Of a DNA stretch of 38,380 bases, positions 5,724 to 18,501 are shown in pieces; position 1 is the stretch's first letter; every line of letters starts with the position of its first letter. The notes beneath the pieces are model-generated. The model was not told the origin of the DNA and did no database searches. It was given only the letters and a program-made list of their open reading frames with translations. The translations under genes were made by a program, and so were the position numbers. Location: IMG/VR virus record IMGVR_UViG_3300038696_000181, positions 1 through 38,380 of that record; one strand, given 5' to 3'. This DNA is from a virus. Taxonomy: Duplodnaviria; Caudoviricetes.

Positions 5724-5993
5724 ATGCTTTGTCGCGAAATATGTCCCAGAGGGCTCGATTGCGAGCCAATAAGCAACGTTGTATCGGATAACGATAAAAC
5801 CTTTATTTGTGTCGGATATCACAACGAGAAAGACAAGGAAATCCCTCAAGACCGTTTCCGACATTGTTTCAAGAGCTCCGCAAATACGGACTCGATGTTT
5901 GATTACGATACTTACGACCTCCTTTCGGTTGTATCGGTTATGAGTGACGCGTTATTAATTGATAATTTGAAAAATGGCAGCACCAAAGAATAA
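5724..5993 (+). CDS. Hypothetical Cys-containing protein
   Basis: Operon context; overlaps the terS start. Confidence 0.55.
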   Translation: MLCREICPRGLDCEPISNVVSDNDKTFICVGYHNEKDKEIPQDRFRHCFKSSANTDSMFDYDTYDLLSVVSVMSDALLIDNLKNGSTKE

Positions 5994-6423
5994 TAAATTT
6001 TGGGAGTTACGCTCCTCGCACGGGAGAAACCTCATTTTTTCCTCTCCTCAAGTCCTTTGGGAGGCTTGTAAAGAATATTTCGAGACAACCTCCGAGAGAG
6101 TTTGGATAAAAAAGGATTGGGTCGGGAAAGACGCTTACGAGGTCGACCGAGAGACCTCCGCTCCTTTCACAAAGCAAGGGTTATATATATTTCTTGATAT
6201 TGATCGGAGTACATGGGACGAGTACAAGAAAAGGAAAGATTTTTCCCCTATCTGTACGCGTGTCGAGGAAATTATATACCTCCAGAAATTCGAGGGAGCC
6301 GTTGTCGGAGCTTTTAATCATTCCATAATCGCTCGAGAGTTGGGCCTTGCGGACAAGAAAGAGGTCTCTCGTAAAAAGATCGTTGTTACAACAAAGAAAA
6401 GGATATCCGAGACGGACGATTAA
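5974..6423 (+). CDS. terS: Terminase small subunit, P22 gp3-like DNA packaging protein
   Basis: MAAPKNNKFWELRSSHGRN..F..P..LWEAC.EYF...QKFEGAVVGAFN.SIIARELGL. Confidence 0.88.
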   Translation: MAAPKNNKFWELRSSHGRNLIFSSPQVLWEACKEYFETTSERVWIKKDWVGKDAYEVDRETSAPFTKQGLYIFLDIDRSTWDEYKKRKDFSPICTRVEEIIYLQKFEGAVVGAFNHSIIARELGLADKKEVSRKKIVVTTKKRISETDD

Positions 6424-6428
6424 TTGCG

Positions 6429-6561
6429 TCCCAACGATTGACGGTAAACTCTCGTTGCCGTCCTAAATACGAGAGATGAATTTTCAAAACAGTAGAAACT
6501 ATGAGCGAAGCAGAAAAGTTTGATAACAAACAAGGCAATGGAGAGTTACCGTGTGTTAGCG
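6429..6561. repeat. attC-like site 1 (133 bp)
   Basis: TCCCAAC-gattg-ACGGTAAACTCTCGTTGCC ... GGCAATGGAGAGTTACCGT-gt-GTTAGCG; contains the ATG at 6501. Confidence 0.78.
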
Positions 6562-6707
6562 GTAGTGATTCTAAAGAATGTAAAAATTGCCTATACTATA
6601 ATGTTCAAAAAATTGGTTGTAAACACCCAAGCTGGAATAAGTGTATTGTTAGAGATAGTGATGAATTTGTGATTGATTATTTATATCACGAATATCATTA
6701 CCGCTAA
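6501..6707 (+). CDS. Cassette 1: small Cys-rich hypothetical protein
   Basis: Starts inside attC-1; CKNC...C...C; the TAA stop lies in the CGCTAAC box of attC-2. Confidence 0.6.
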   Translation: MSEAEKFDNKQGNGELPCVSGSDSKECKNCLYYNVQKIGCKHPSWNKCIVRDSDEFVIDYLYHEYHYR

Positions 6708-6761
6708 CGGTAAGCATAAGGTGCGTATGGCGCAGCCTATGCACTTTATGCAATGTTGTAT
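6702..6761. repeat. attC-like site 2 (60 bp)
   Basis: CGCTAAC-ggtaa-GCATAAGGTGCGTATGG cgcag CCTATGCACTTTATGC-aat-GTTGTAT. Confidence 0.8.
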
Positions 6762-6813
6762 TCAGTGGTTTTTGGGCGGGTTTACTAAATAAGTTAAATA
6801 AATTGCTTTTTTC

Positions 6814-6844
6814 TTTGCTGGTTACAATTTATGTTGTATATTTG
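6814..6844 (+). promoter_or_regulatory. Bacteroidota -33/-7 promoter inside cassette 2
   Basis: TTTG (6814-6817), 19 nt spacer, TATATTTG (6837-6844), then an A-rich leader to ATG 6875. Confidence 0.65.
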
Positions 6845-6874
6845 GAGTATAGAAACAAACAAATAACACACAAA

Positions 6875-7201
6875 ATGGCCTCAAAATTCCAACTTAAAGA
6901 TTACCTCGCAGCAAACAGAGAAGTAGTAATTGCAAAATTTCAAGACCTGCAAAAAGAAAAATTCTACAACGGTATAAGCTTGAAAAACTTCATGATAGAA
7001 GTCTTTCAGCAAATGGCTAACAACAATCCTAAAAGCGATAAAAAAGCAACTAGCCTACTTCCTTTTGTGGTGTCTGCCGTATCGAATAGAAATTGCAAAA
7101 TCGGCGCAACACATACAAAGCCTTACTCTGAAAGTAACCACGCAAAAGCGGTTAACTACTTCGGAGCCGATAAAGTAAAATCAATGTCTAACGCTAAATA
7201 A
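6875..7201 (+). CDS. Cassette 2 gene A: hypothetical protein (start revised to MASKFQLK)
   Basis: ATG after an A-rich leader downstream of the promoter. Confidence 0.65.
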   Translation: MASKFQLKDYLAANREVVIAKFQDLQKEKFYNGISLKNFMIEVFQQMANNNPKSDKKATSLLPFVVSAVSNRNCKIGATHTKPYSESNHAKAVNYFGADKVKSMSNAK

Positions 7202-7209
7202 TTAAAACC

Positions 7210-7458
7210 ATGTCAAAACTACGAAGCCCAAAAAACAAATTTCGTATTGAGTTCAATTACTCAAAGCCAGTTAAAGGACTAGGAAGCTCTTGCTCCATTA
7301 CGAGTAACGAAGTAGAAAAATCTTCAAACATGATAGACCACTATATTGAAATAGCTAAAAGGAATAATGTGAGCGTGAGTATTACGGTAAAGGAAAATAG
7401 AAAGACCTATCCTGAATTTGATTGGCAAATAATTGACCAATACACTGTAAATAAATAG
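7210..7458 (+). CDS. Cassette 2 gene B: hypothetical protein
   Basis: Tight operon spacing. Confidence 0.65.
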   Translation: MSKLRSPKNKFRIEFNYSKPVKGLGSSCSITSNEVEKSSNMIDHYIEIAKRNNVSVSITVKENRKTYPEFDWQIIDQYTVNK

Positions 7459-7460
7459 AT

Positions 7461-7652
7461 ATGCCTTACTGGTTTTTAAACAAGCAGACAAACGAAGCGC
7501 GAGTATTTGGCTCGCGCTCTCCTATTGTAGAATGCACTGATATCACTGATAACGAACTTGACTACGCATTTTCTCGGAAAAAGCAATCTGAATACGAGAA
7601 TGAAAAATACAGGATAGTTCGAGTTGATTTAGAGCGGGGAGGCAAACATTGA
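7461..7652 (+). CDS. Cassette 2 gene C: small putative DNA-binding protein
   Basis: TGA stop abuts the attC-3 ATACAAC box; loosely resembles ORF 10578-10760. Confidence 0.55.
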   Translation: MPYWFLNKQTNEARVFGSRSPIVECTDITDNELDYAFSRKKQSEYENEKYRIVRVDLERGGKH

Positions 7653-7781
7653 ATACAACGATTTGGGTATGAAGTGTGGCGGATTGAAAACCGAAACCTT
7701 CCAAACTAAAACAAAACTTTGATAATGGATAAAACTTTGAATACAGGCGAAACCCGCCATAATTTACACCCTGTGTTATGT
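7653..7781. repeat. attC-like site 3 (129 bp)
   Basis: ATACAAC-gattt-GGGTATGAAGTGTGGCGG ... CCGCCATAATTTACACCC-tgt-GTTATGT; contains the ATG at 7725. Confidence 0.78.
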
Positions 7782-8435
7782 GCTGGGCGGCCTAAACTAC
7801 TGGACTTATTTTGTTGTGCTGGTGGTGCTGCAAAAGGTTATTATAATGCAGGATTTGAAGTGGTGGGAATTGATATTGAACCACAACCGCAATATCCTTA
7901 TAAGTTCATTCTTTCTGATGCGCTCGAATATCTTGAAAAGCACGGAAGCGAGTATGATGTAATACACGCAAGTCCACCGTGCCAAGGATATAGCCACCTT
8001 ACACCAAAAGAACACAAGGGCGACCACGAAAAACTCATTGATAAATTGCATGTATTACTTGTACGGGTTGGAAAGCCTTACATAATCGAAAATGTAGCTG
8101 GCGCAAAGAATGAACTTATAGAGCCTATAAAATTATGTGGCTCAATGTTCAATTTGAGATGCCAGCGACATAGATTCTTTGAAACCTCTTTTGCTTTAAA
8201 TGTAGAAATGAAATGCGACCATAGCCAAATACCATTATTAGTAACCACAGCAAGCAAGGCAAGCAGGGAATTAAGGCAAAAACTTGGGATGAAACCAAAA
8301 ACGGTTAAAAATGCACCGCTGGCATACGGCATTGATTGGATGAACTTTAATGGATTGAAAGAGTGTATTCCGCCAGCTTACACCCAATGGATAGGCGAAC
8401 GTTGGATTGAAGCACAAGCCCAGCCTTGCACATAA
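7725..8435 (+). CDS. Cassette 3: DNA (cytosine-5)-methyltransferase
   Basis: LLDLFCCAGG (motif I), HASPPCQ (IV), IIENV (VI), QRHRFF (VIII-like). Starts in attC-3; the TAA stop lies in the ACATAAC box. Confidence 0.85.
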   Translation: MDKTLNTGETRHNLHPVLCAGRPKLLDLFCCAGGAAKGYYNAGFEVVGIDIEPQPQYPYKFILSDALEYLEKHGSEYDVIHASPPCQGYSHLTPKEHKGDHEKLIDKLHVLLVRVGKPYIIENVAGAKNELIEPIKLCGSMFNLRCQRHRFFETSFALNVEMKCDHSQIPLLVTTASKASRELRQKLGMKPKTVKNAPLAYGIDWMNFNGLKECIPPAYTQWIGERWIEAQAQPCT

Positions 8436-8487
8436 CGCATAGCTATGTGTAGTGGCTTTTCGCCATTCCATATAGGTGATGTTGGGC
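8430..8487. repeat. attC-like site 4 (58 bp)
   Basis: ACATAAC-gcatag-CTATGTGTAGTGGC ttttc GCCATTCCATATAG-gtgat-GTTGGGC. Confidence 0.78.
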
Positions 8488-8515
8488 TTTCGTTTTACAT
8501 TTAAAAACACACACT

Positions 8516-8797
8516 ATGAATATACAAGATGAAGTTGCAAAAATTCACGCTAAATACTCGACAACCGAAATGGCAAATTACAAGATTCAGATTTTGTTTG
8601 ATTCTGAAATTGACAAAGCCATAAATGATAACAACGAAATTTGGGCGAAAAGAAGGGAAGAAACCGCAAGAGCAAGGGAGGAGATTGCTATATGTTTCAT
8701 GCTAAGATATTATGTTGATGAAGATCATACAGAAAAAAGCGAACAAGATGCAATAGCAGATTACAGAATAAGAGGTTATCGTCTTCGCTCTCAATGA
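8516..8797 (+). CDS. Cassette 4: hypothetical protein
   Basis: Own ATG with an A-rich leader; TGA ends just before the GCCCAAC box. Confidence 0.65.
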   Translation: MNIQDEVAKIHAKYSTTEMANYKIQILFDSEIDKAINDNNEIWAKRREETARAREEIAICFMLRYYVDEDHTEKSEQDAIADYRIRGYRLRSQ

Positions 8798-8798
8798 A

Positions 8799-8934
8799 GC
8801 CCAACGTGTAGGATAAAGTGAGTGGAGGGGTCGCTTCCAAGAGGGCTGATACCTCAGATTTGTTAGGTAACGAGCTTGGACAGTATTACCGAAGCACCTG
8901 AGAGCCTCCATTCATTCTTTATCAACTGTTGGAC
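8799..8934. repeat. attC-like site 5 (136 bp)
   Basis: GCCCAAC-gtgtag-GATAAAGTGAGTGGAGG ... CCTCCATTCATTCTTTATC-aact-GTTGGAC. Confidence 0.75.
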
Positions 8935-8952
8935 GCTTTTTAAATTTTGATA

Positions 8953-9936
8953 ATGGAAAATAAAGTACATCATTGCAATTTTCTGGATAATGCTTTACCC
9001 GATAAAAGTGTAAATCTCATTATTGCGGACCCTCCTTATTTTGAGGTTAAAGGAGATTTCGATTTTGTCTGGAGTAGCTTTAACGATTACCTAAAAGACG
9101 TCGAGAAATGGGTTATTGAGTGTAAAAGGTTGCTCTCCGATAACGGGACTCTCTTTTGGTACGGAAACTCTAAAAAAATCGCATATTCTCAAATAATTCT
9201 CGACCAATATTTTAATCTTGAAAACTCCTTGACCTGGAGAAAAAAAGATAGTATCCAATACCAATATTACAGTCCAGATCTTGCAAGAAGTTTTAACACT
9301 CACAACGAGCGCATTTTAATGTATTCAAACGAGGTCGGATTAACGGGCTTGGAAATGATAACGGAGGAGTTTATCAAGCCTCGAAATCCCTTTTCTCTTT
9401 ACTTGAGGGAGGAATTTAAAAAAGCGGGAGTAACGAATAAGAAAATCGCGGCTCTTTTTCCGAGTAAAACGGGAGGATTGACGGGTTGTGTTTCAAATTG
9501 GTTAAATGGAGATAGTATTATCACGGAAAAGCAATATTTATTAATACGTGATTTTTTAAACGGCGAGTATCTCTGTGAGGATTACGATTATCTCCGTAAG
9601 GAATACGACGAGATCCGACAAGAGTATGAGGACAAGAGGAGGTTTTTTTATAACCCGTTAAAACTCGACGAGGTTTTGGAGTTTTCTCAAGAGGCTCACA
9701 TTAGTAAGAAATACGATCACGAAACCCAAAAAGCCGAGACGCTTACGAGGTCTTTGATCATTACTTGCAGCCGAAAAAACGCGCTTGTATTAATCCCCTT
9801 TGCGGGATCTGGGACGGAGTGCGCGATGAGTGCAAAAGAGGGGAGGCGGTTTATTGGATATGAGATCAACAAGAGACACGTTGTTACCGCAAATAAAAGA
9901 TGCAAAGAGTATTTGTCTCAAACAAGTTTTTTTTAA
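8953..9936 (+). CDS. DNA N4-cytosine/N6-adenine methyltransferase (beta class)
   Basis: IIADPPY near the N-terminus, HETQK, and LIPFAGSGT near the C-terminus. Confidence 0.9.
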   Translation: MENKVHHCNFLDNALPDKSVNLIIADPPYFEVKGDFDFVWSSFNDYLKDVEKWVIECKRLLSDNGTLFWYGNSKKIAYSQIILDQYFNLENSLTWRKKDSIQYQYYSPDLARSFNTHNERILMYSNEVGLTGLEMITEEFIKPRNPFSLYLREEFKKAGVTNKKIAALFPSKTGGLTGCVSNWLNGDSIITEKQYLLIRDFLNGEYLCEDYDYLRKEYDEIRQEYEDKRRFFYNPLKLDEVLEFSQEAHISKKYDHETQKAETLTRSLIITCSRKNALVLIPFAGSGTECAMSAKEGRRFIGYEINKRHVVTANKRCKEYLSQTSFF

Positions 9937-9938
9937 AA

Positions 9939-10349
9939 ATGGGCTATATCTCCAAGAAAGACCGAGAAATTGTCAAGAAAAAGTTTAACGGCCTTTGCGC
10001 GTACTCTGGGACTCCTCTCGAGGACGATTGGCAAGTTGACCACGTAAAGCCCTTGATCCGTAATCGATGGGTCGGAGGTTGCCTTAATCCAGACGATCAC
10101 AAATTGGAAAACCTCTTTCCAACTCAAAAGATTATCAATCATTATAAGGGATCTCTCGACCTGGAAACCTTTCGGTCTTGGTATCTTGGGGGATTGGATA
10201 CTCGGTTAAAAAAGCTCCCAAAAAAGACGAGGGTCGAATCAACCAAGAGGAGGAAAAAGTACCTCCATAAAGTTGCGGAGTATTTTGATATATCGGAGGA
10301 CAAGCCTTTCTCGGGAGCTTTTTACTTTGAAACCTTGCAAGACTCGTAA
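9939..10349 (+). CDS. HNH endonuclease (start revised to MGYISKK)
   Basis: CAYSG...WQVDHVKP...NL.P....NHYKG. Confidence 0.8.
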   Translation: MGYISKKDREIVKKKFNGLCAYSGTPLEDDWQVDHVKPLIRNRWVGGCLNPDDHKLENLFPTQKIINHYKGSLDLETFRSWYLGGLDTRLKKLPKKTRVESTKRRKKYLHKVAEYFDISEDKPFSGAFYFETLQDS

Positions 10350-17743: not shown

Positions 17744-18501
17744 AAAAAAAATGTTGCGGTCCCAATTGGTTGAGACGTTTGTATTTAAGTAAAACGGGAG
17801 GAGGAGGGACGCCTGCTATCCCTTCGCTCGGCTATGGGCTGCTTTATAACTGGTACGCTGCCACGGATGCAAGAGGCGTTGCTCCTAGTGGTTTTAGGGT
17901 TCCGCTTGATGCTGATTTTTTGGCTTTGATAAATCAATTTGGAGGTGTAAATAATGAGGGGGCAAGAAATTCACTAATGGGAACCAGAAGGTCTTCAGAT
18001 GGTCATCCGTACTGGGATGGAGGCTCAACAACTGCTAACGGAACAAACAGTAGTGATTGGGCTTTTTACGGCTATGGTAGGAGAGACGGTTTTAACGGCT
18101 TGTTTGCAGTGGAAACGGGGCCTTTTAGTGCTCAATTTGGATATTGGTACGTATCAGATTTAGATAGCACATCATCAAATCCTATTAATTATTATCTGAG
18201 TTCAGGGTTATCTCCAAGCAGAGACTCAAACTTTGGCGGTTTTGCAAATTCTGCAAGAAATGGTTATAGCGTTCGGTGCGTTTCCGACACAGAGCCACTA
18301 ACCCCGACAGTAGTCGATGCTGACGGAAACCTTTACACATGGGTTCAAATAGGAGCGCAGTACTGGTTACAACAAAACCTCAAAACAACTACCTACAACA
18401 ACGGAGACACTATTCCAACAGGATTAGATAACTCAGCTTGGGCCGCAACAACCGACGGGGCTTGGGCTTATCCAAACGGTGATTCAAATTTACCAATATA
18501 A
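17740..18501 (+). CDS. Fibrobacter succinogenes major-domain (Fib_succ_major/FISUMP) protein, apparently circularly permuted
   Basis: YGLLYNWYAA..P.GFRVP, GYSVRCV, then DADGNLY..VQIGAQYWLQQNLKT..YNNGD.IP. Confidence 0.8.
   Translation: MKKKCCGPNWLRRLYLSKTGGGGTPAIPSLGYGLLYNWYAATDARGVAPSGFRVPLDADFLALINQFGGVNNEGARNSLMGTRRSSDGHPYWDGGSTTANGTNSSDWAFYGYGRRDGFNGLFAVETGPFSAQFGYWYVSDLDSTSSNPINYYLSSGLSPSRDSNFGGFANSARNGYSVRCVSDTEPLTPTVVDADGNLYTWVQIGAQYWLQQNLKTTTYNNGDTIPTGLDNSAWAATTDGAWAYPNGDSNLPI

Follow-up and report, generated by a model that had tools for sequence, protein, structure and literature searches.

How a phage with no integrase in view came to carry a chain of hairpin-bounded gene units, and which recombinase exchanges such units, are the questions raised by the locus described here. 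The window, by which we mean the whole 38,380-nucleotide stretch of viral record IMGVR_UViG_3300038696_000181, is a tailed-phage fragment in which comparison of 49 ORFs with Pfam and PHROGs identified RecT, terS, terL, tape measure, portal and DnaB. Five hairpins are placed between the terminase small subunit gene terS (5974–6423, plus strand; PF16677, phrog_606), the phage backbone on the left, and an N6/N4 DNA methyltransferase gene on the right (8953–9936, plus strand; PF01555), and both flanks are backbone-like in composition. Homologues of this methyltransferase in two other loci (L007 and L009) are cassettes themselves. The best-matching sequencing run is a salt-lake metagenome, possibly its source. 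The site family and a short match to Bacteroides phages suggest that the host belongs to the Bacteroidota.

The original prediction described this block as an integron-type cassette array lacking an integrase, and its structural elements are all in place. Five AAC…GTT palindromes follow one another on the plus strand, with AAC at 6433, 6706, 7657, 8434 and 8803 and GTT ending at 6557, 6757, 7777, 8483 and 8930. The unit 1 ORF has its start codon within site 1 (6433–6557, 125 bp from AAC to GTT), and a methyltransferase ORF within site 3 (7657–7777, 121 bp); sites 2 (6706–6757) and 4 (8434–8483) span 52 and 50 bp, and site 5 (128 bp; 8803–8947 with its head box) has no matching tail box downstream. 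Each GTT box pairs only with the AAC box of the next site, over 10, 10, 9 and 9 exact bases (11, 11, 10 and 9 of 12 when scored over 12 positions), compared with 3–6 exact bases in the other 21 pairings. A site-and-link detector, which is biased toward positive arm offsets, recovered exactly these four links across the window, and none of 30 dinucleotide-shuffled versions yielded a link. In every unit the last ORF stops in or beside the box (6705–6707, 7650–7652, 8433–8435 and 8795–8797), as had been predicted, and neither the Pfam and PHROGs comparisons nor tblastn detected a tyrosine recombinase in the window. The block therefore has the arrangement by which an integron or CALIN array is recognized, that is, at least two imperfect AAC/GTT palindromes bounding ORFs with no integrase nearby.

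Four cassettes can be delimited on the plus strand, each beginning with its hairpin and GTT head box, continuing with one to three ORFs, and closing with a tail box that is complementary to the head and ends in AAC. Cassette 1 (6435–6707, ~273 bp; its exact cut within AAC is presumptive) combines site 1, its head box, a 68-aa Cys-rich ORF (6501–6707) of no known family in Pfam or PHROGs, and the tail box. Cassette 2 (6708–7658, ~951 bp) holds three short ORFs without a family (6875–7201, 7210–7458 and 7461–7652); the first yielded no viral locus and no Atlas match, and the stretch 7129–7204 is similar to Bacteroides phage genes. Cassette 3 (7659–8435, ~777 bp) encodes a C5-cytosine DNA methyltransferase-like protein (7725–8435; PF00145, E 3.9e-7; phrog_363, E 1.1e-36), and cassette 4 (8436–8804, ~369 bp) a 93-aa protein of no family (8516–8797), whose Atlas matches were all under 0.9. 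Some homologues of the cargo genes are not part of cassettes (L012, L013, L182 and L183).

Complementarity between head and tail boxes across an ORF arises with a cut at GTT as well as at AAC, so the chain leaves the mechanism open, and the discriminating test used was which hairpin accompanies a given body. Two duplicated cassettes, both from one and the same genome, are informative in this respect. The chromosomal duplicate at L162 shows 0 mismatches from the upstream AAC, left of which identity is 13/25, to offset 957, the next AAC being at 952. At L148, 14 mismatches are scattered up to offset 611 and become dense from 612, with the next AAC at 608. In the window, the unit 1 and unit 3 ORFs each begin 68 nt into the hairpin that precedes them; an ATG is found at offset 66–72 in three sites of L007/L008, and the downstream ORF starts inside the site in 12/28 phage-type and 3/42 chromosomal sites. 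The methyltransferase homologues in L007 and L008 have upstream hairpin arms in common, followed by different sequence. Since breaks and duplicates end at AAC and two ORFs start within their upstream hairpin, each hairpin is owned by the gene downstream of it. Crossover at G/TT with a cassette made of an ORF and its downstream attC, as defines integrons, is not what we find, despite a minority of breaks at GTT. The idea that hairpin-coded leaders become fused to random next cassettes was dropped, as the hairpin moves with its own gene.

The same exchange point emerges from lake metagenomes. Contigs were compared from 8 of the 24 runs listed, and with X1, the possible source, set aside, seven runs remain; all of this evidence consists of assembled contigs. 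In these seven, contigs carry the units beside different neighbors, mostly at 90–99% identity or more. In our tally of loose ends over 42 of 100 rows, which recur across runs, 22 lie no more than 4 nt from an AAC box, whereas GTT boxes account for 2; a further 5 are at 7671 (AAC plus 12 nt, in the hairpin arm), and the other 13 fall within unit 2, in loops or at 6420. Counted by distinct flanks, 1, 3, 2 and 4 other hairpins come straight after the tail AAC of bodies 1–4, and these 10 are unlike integron polarity, which would not yield them; in run X6, for example, cassette 3 is followed by two other hairpins. Pieces spanning 8434–8805/7, comprising site 4 plus body 4 and ending at the next AAC, occur in X2, X3, X4, X7 and X11. 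A joint of 6704 to 8433 in X2, X3, X7 and X11 sets a site-4-type hairpin after body 1; as only 8433–8501 (69 nt) follows it in X7 and X11, the joint involves a different cassette that shares this hairpin and head and sits in a different genome; it is not an excision in this phage. terS and the N6/N4 methyltransferase are without cover in the seven runs, and absence was not counted as evidence. Collectively, the contigs demonstrate that the units are mobile in natural populations and switch neighbors at the AAC box, and the window thereby contributes population evidence on the location of exchange.

A candidate for the enzyme comes from Bacteroidia chromosomes. From a PF13495 search of 151 genomes we extended 20 loci, our own pick of top-scoring loci on longer contigs from 150 listed and 216 further matches, with two pairs coming from shared genomes. 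Convergent sites lie within 6 kb of the recombinase 3′ end in 16 of these 20, sites in the other orientation in none, and sites on the 5′ side in one. The motif AACTNNNWTATA follows the last tail box in 12 loci, including all 4 without sites, and every one of the 20 has either convergent sites or the motif. All seven recombinases tested scored highest on the XerA-like model (208–234 bits, five exceeding the cut-off of 220) and remained below the IntI cut-off of TIGR02249 (197–224 versus 265 bits, in two stretches). Compared with VchIntIA, the linker measures 21 rather than 63 residues and ~42 residues are absent at the IntI insertion; the linked recombinase aligns gap-free to archaeal XerA structures and falls below the XerC and XerD cut-offs. 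An IntI with this insertion is the cognate enzyme of integrons, and the linked chromosomal enzymes are not of this kind. IntI recombination at G/TT, which the original prediction gave as an established footprint, thus lacks support, given exchange at AAC, downstream ownership of the hairpin and the link of such sites to a XerA-like enzyme that has no IntI insertion.

Other searches delimit this association. Screening 20 genome loci for links gave 4 positives, and in G002 a five-site phage-type array ends in a C-terminal recombinase remnant. Among 30 PF00589 loci from five genomes, examined with 1.5-kb flanks and not constituting a matched control, such a site was present only at a remnant (L074). 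PF00589 was detected in 0/4 viral records with arrays or sites, and recombinase matches in cultured phages reached 34–38% only. A short sequence pattern present in 52/301 genomes was discarded, its reversed control being about as frequent; of 16 regions retrieved with it, 2 had linked sites.

The window shares with the chromosomal loci AACG…TGTT-type hairpins, a longer AAC-side arm, chain complementarity and exchange at AAC. It contains no match to the AACTNNNWTATA docking motif and no convergent recombinase at its downstream end, and is in this sense an orphan array. The AAC-side arm exceeds its partner by 4, 2, 2, 1 and 2 nt in sites 1–5 and by 4 nt in 45/54 chromosomal sites, the extra bases adjoining the core. 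The common layout suggests that the linked type of enzyme acts on the window's sites, although the arm offsets differ; with offsets of mostly 1–2 nt here against 4 nt in chromosomes, the cognate enzyme may belong to another subfamily and could perhaps be phage-borne.

We propose, with good though not full confidence, that the four mobile cassettes of the block form an orphan array with exchange at AAC, likely moved in trans by a XerA-like recombinase of the host. The gene-sense strand would fold as single-stranded DNA. IntI is known to cut at AA/C, and by analogy the cut might be made at the same position here. Units would be excised and inserted as circles by the host XerA-like tyrosine recombinase, with new cassettes potentially entering host arrays through an AAC-T docking site at their downstream end. 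The same recombinase could act in trans on this phage.

How the block arrived in this phage can be read from its ends. Composition is foreign from ~6420–6480 to ~8930–8950, while terS, the N6/N4 methyltransferase and HNH are backbone-like. In run X7, a contig aligns from 6420 onward and is preceded there by non-terS sequence, and because of this the 13 nt left of site 1 represent a foreign tail. The feature at 6420–6435 (plus strand), which overlaps the terS stop and matches site 5, is accordingly a tail box belonging to a foreign cassette, the body of which is missing here. As the ends lie beyond the boxes, at the terS stop and near the methyltransferase start, acquisition as a single block is the most economical account. 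The array is recently acquired, and the 2.5 kb were probably taken whole from another array, with crossovers at gene boundaries and not at boxes. The phage had been predicted to gain cassettes as such; mobile hairpin-bounded cassettes are borne out, and stepwise gain at the terS–methyltransferase junction is not, given block ends outside the boxes. The direct repeat TTAA, present at 6420 and 8940, might reflect microhomology used in capture or might belong to the box stem.

The terS relative L001 has no array at this position. In the contig whose terS is closest (71%), an array after terS is likewise absent, and the locus L023 of that contig carries the same nested layout after dnaB, with hairpin 2 identical. 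The comparison revealed no closely related genome in which the terS junction is empty or varied, and 8 terS loci (44–71% identity; L179 and L180, which duplicate the contigs of L003 and L004, were excluded) have no site within 1.5 kb. The leftmost box (6426–6435) matches the rightmost GTT box (8928–8936) with one extra C, a match expected by chance at ~2e-4 (6-mer, three registers), and a multi-cassette circle opened within one cassette would explain such nested outer boxes. Searches for a body downstream of site 5 or upstream of site 1 gave 0 matches, and a further search 8 matches in unrelated contexts.

The alternative that survives best, a serious contender although we favor it less than an active array, is that the system is the same and the array was captured once and is now frozen in this phage, the mobility seen in the runs belonging to other genomes. 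Block ends outside the boxes would be expected from such a history, as would a window without docking motif or recombinase, and the contigs of the possible source run X1 show no joint at any box. Contigs, however, lose rare variants, and with four head–tail pairs intact and units mostly 90–99% or more identical elsewhere, the sites should remain substrates. This alternative is compatible with our preferred explanation except on the matter of present activity.

A further alternative, rather unlikely in our estimation, is dual use of the sites, whereby a Xer-like enzyme cuts at AAC and an occasional cut at GTT, by IntI or the same enzyme, re-pairs hairpins with bodies. The GTT-side exceptions, which count against exchange at AAC, comprise the two GTT-box loose ends, both at 6758 and with one flank (X3 and X6), the loci L019/L023, and records starting at 6553 (X4 and X11). 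In favor of dual use, hairpin 2 heads three bodies, in the window, in L019/L023 and in runs X3/X6; a search with the site-2 pattern returned 12 loci, with the whole hairpin in L019/L023 only. IntI1 also recombined the antisense strand of the second site of phage P12002L (P12002L_attC2), according to the accessible part of PMC9892861, and this site overlaps a tail box of the present type. Shared hairpins would, however, equally be given by a common site template for new cassettes, and in X7 and X11 site 4 plus ~18 nt of head precedes another body, a break that lies beyond the box.

Far less probable is a classical CALIN, in which attC sites are recombined by a host IntI at G/TT. The AAC…GTT cores, the stops in the AAC box, the extra bases on the AAC-side arm and the few breaks at GTT all resemble this situation, and the accessible part of PMC9892861 describes 17 phage CALINs with methyltransferase cargo and IntI1 activity on 5/6 phage sites. 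In the same part of that study, on the other hand, P12002L_attC1, the one clear tested site of the present type, has no verified IntI1 junction. Loose ends of 22 at AAC versus 2 at GTT in the 42 of 100 rows, AAC-to-AAC duplicates and linked recombinases without the IntI insertion likewise argue against it. Geometry points in the same direction, as attC sites have aligned spacers and a single extrahelical L-box base and the window sites do not; two IntI1-validated TJE1 sites used as controls showed aligned spacers with one extra base after 8 nt. DNA folding of the integrated sites on the gene-sense strand gave z = −2.4, −3.5, −1.2, −1.5 and −3.4 for sites 1–5, making sites 3 and 4 weak by energy alone, and reconstituted junctions fold with z of −1.8 to −6.3 under both polarities, which folding does not tell apart.

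A role of the hairpins as terminators or RNA elements, with ordinary phage mosaicism moving the units, can practically be dismissed: the hairpins are intergenic and cargo homologues exist without sites, but promoter and terminator scans remained at chance level with no terminator call on the gene strand, an Rfam search gave no relevant match, box complementarity spans ORFs instead of one hairpin, and breaks cluster on a 3-nt core.

The matching outer boxes, also present in L023, invite a bolder proposition, which we regard as speculative and improbable. Loss of the four cassettes would leave one complete site, making an integrase-less phage genome a giant cassette that could be docked into a host array by the host enzyme, and Bacteroidota and their phages would possess a second, XerA-like integron lineage of reversed polarity that trades cassettes between unrelated lake phages. 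Independently of this proposition, recombination of folded hairpins in the opposite polarity by a XerA-like enzyme that lacks the IntI insertion would, if confirmed, be a second form of integron-type gene capture, missed or mis-oriented by IntI-based surveys and reaching phage genomes, with a pool of accessory genes such as methyltransferases common to Bacteroidota phages, and it would bear on the origin of IntI from Xer-type enzymes. Hairpins and heads common to different ORFs also provide a handle on cassette genesis, which is called unknown in the accessible part of PMC4889954.

Among the closest known systems is one phage site. attC1 of Polaribacter phage P12002L has the present layout on the gene-sense strand, with a 9/9 match to its head box beyond the methyltransferase gene, and very likely belongs to the same system; P12002L_attC2 overlaps the tail box that gives this match. 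It is filed as an attC with ‘divergent directions’ in PMC9892861, the accessible part of which assigns no recombinase, polarity or docking site to it. In the literature searched, which covered few subscription papers, we found no description of a XerA-like system of reverse polarity.

On the side of the enzyme, the Xer family is also among them. XerA, XerC and XerD act on a conserved dif target, and some elements exploit the Xer proteins of their host. A XerA-like enzyme and the use of a host enzyme in trans are the features in common with the system proposed here, whose targets are variable, arrayed hairpins and not dif.

Integrons and CALINs offer the closest parallel in organization, with AAC…GTT hairpins, cassette-specific complementary boxes, a stop in the AAC box, orphan phage arrays and methyltransferase cargo. 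In contrast to these, exchange here takes place at AAC, and the hairpin moves together with the gene downstream of it, whose start codon it often contains. One to four extra bases lie next to the core, versus one after 8 nt in TJE1. The linked enzyme, devoid of the IntI insertion, is encoded convergently at the array's downstream end, next to an AAC-T motif. The extra bases of an integron attC are on the same arm as here, and it is the exchange point that is reversed. The array thus works like an integron array and fails three defining tests of one.

Contigs from other lake metagenome runs break within cassette 2 (6708-7658, three short ORFs) at gene boundaries, at window positions 6870 and 7448-7460, and these ORFs are therefore exchanged without the boxes as well. 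The hairpin heading this cassette (hairpin 2, 6706-6757) recurs in identical form in a related phage, where it is located after dnaB (L023, minus strand, 6001-6330; the same in L019) and lies nested in an older site with outer boxes that agree at 12/13 positions. Run X1, a possible source of the window, contains a joint, 8836-10243, linking window segments 8815-8844 and 10243-10272; it is carried by one 52-nt record with a short side of 22 letters, below the trust limit of the tool, and probably represents a short repeat.

Besides the cassette block, a composition scan marked a sole foreign stretch in the window, ~17800-18500, at an ORF with a Fib_succ_major domain (PF09603; 17740-18501). This stretch is a module swapped in recently, and a search around the ORF for linked hairpin sites found none.

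The window encodes three DNA methyltransferases (2001-2831, 7725-8435 and 8953-9936), and in a composition count its backbone is poor in CA/TG and AC and rich in CG and GA/TC. The second gene, the C5-methyltransferase-like ORF of cassette 3, has ACATAAC at or just past its stop. The same motif is similarly placed in two non-cassette C5-methyltransferase homologues (L012, ~810-820; L013, ~960-970), where it may be an eroded tail box.

Among chromosomal arrays with a linked recombinase, two in a single Bacteroidia genome (L148 and L162, G426), each with a different recombinase, have a 9.3-kb near-identical stretch in common upstream of the recombinase. Polaribacter phage P12002L carries further sites of the window's hairpin type on its minus strand (38935-38036, 31313 and 30060), adjoining methyltransferase and Mom-like genes; these are additional to the two P12002L sites tested in PMC9892861.
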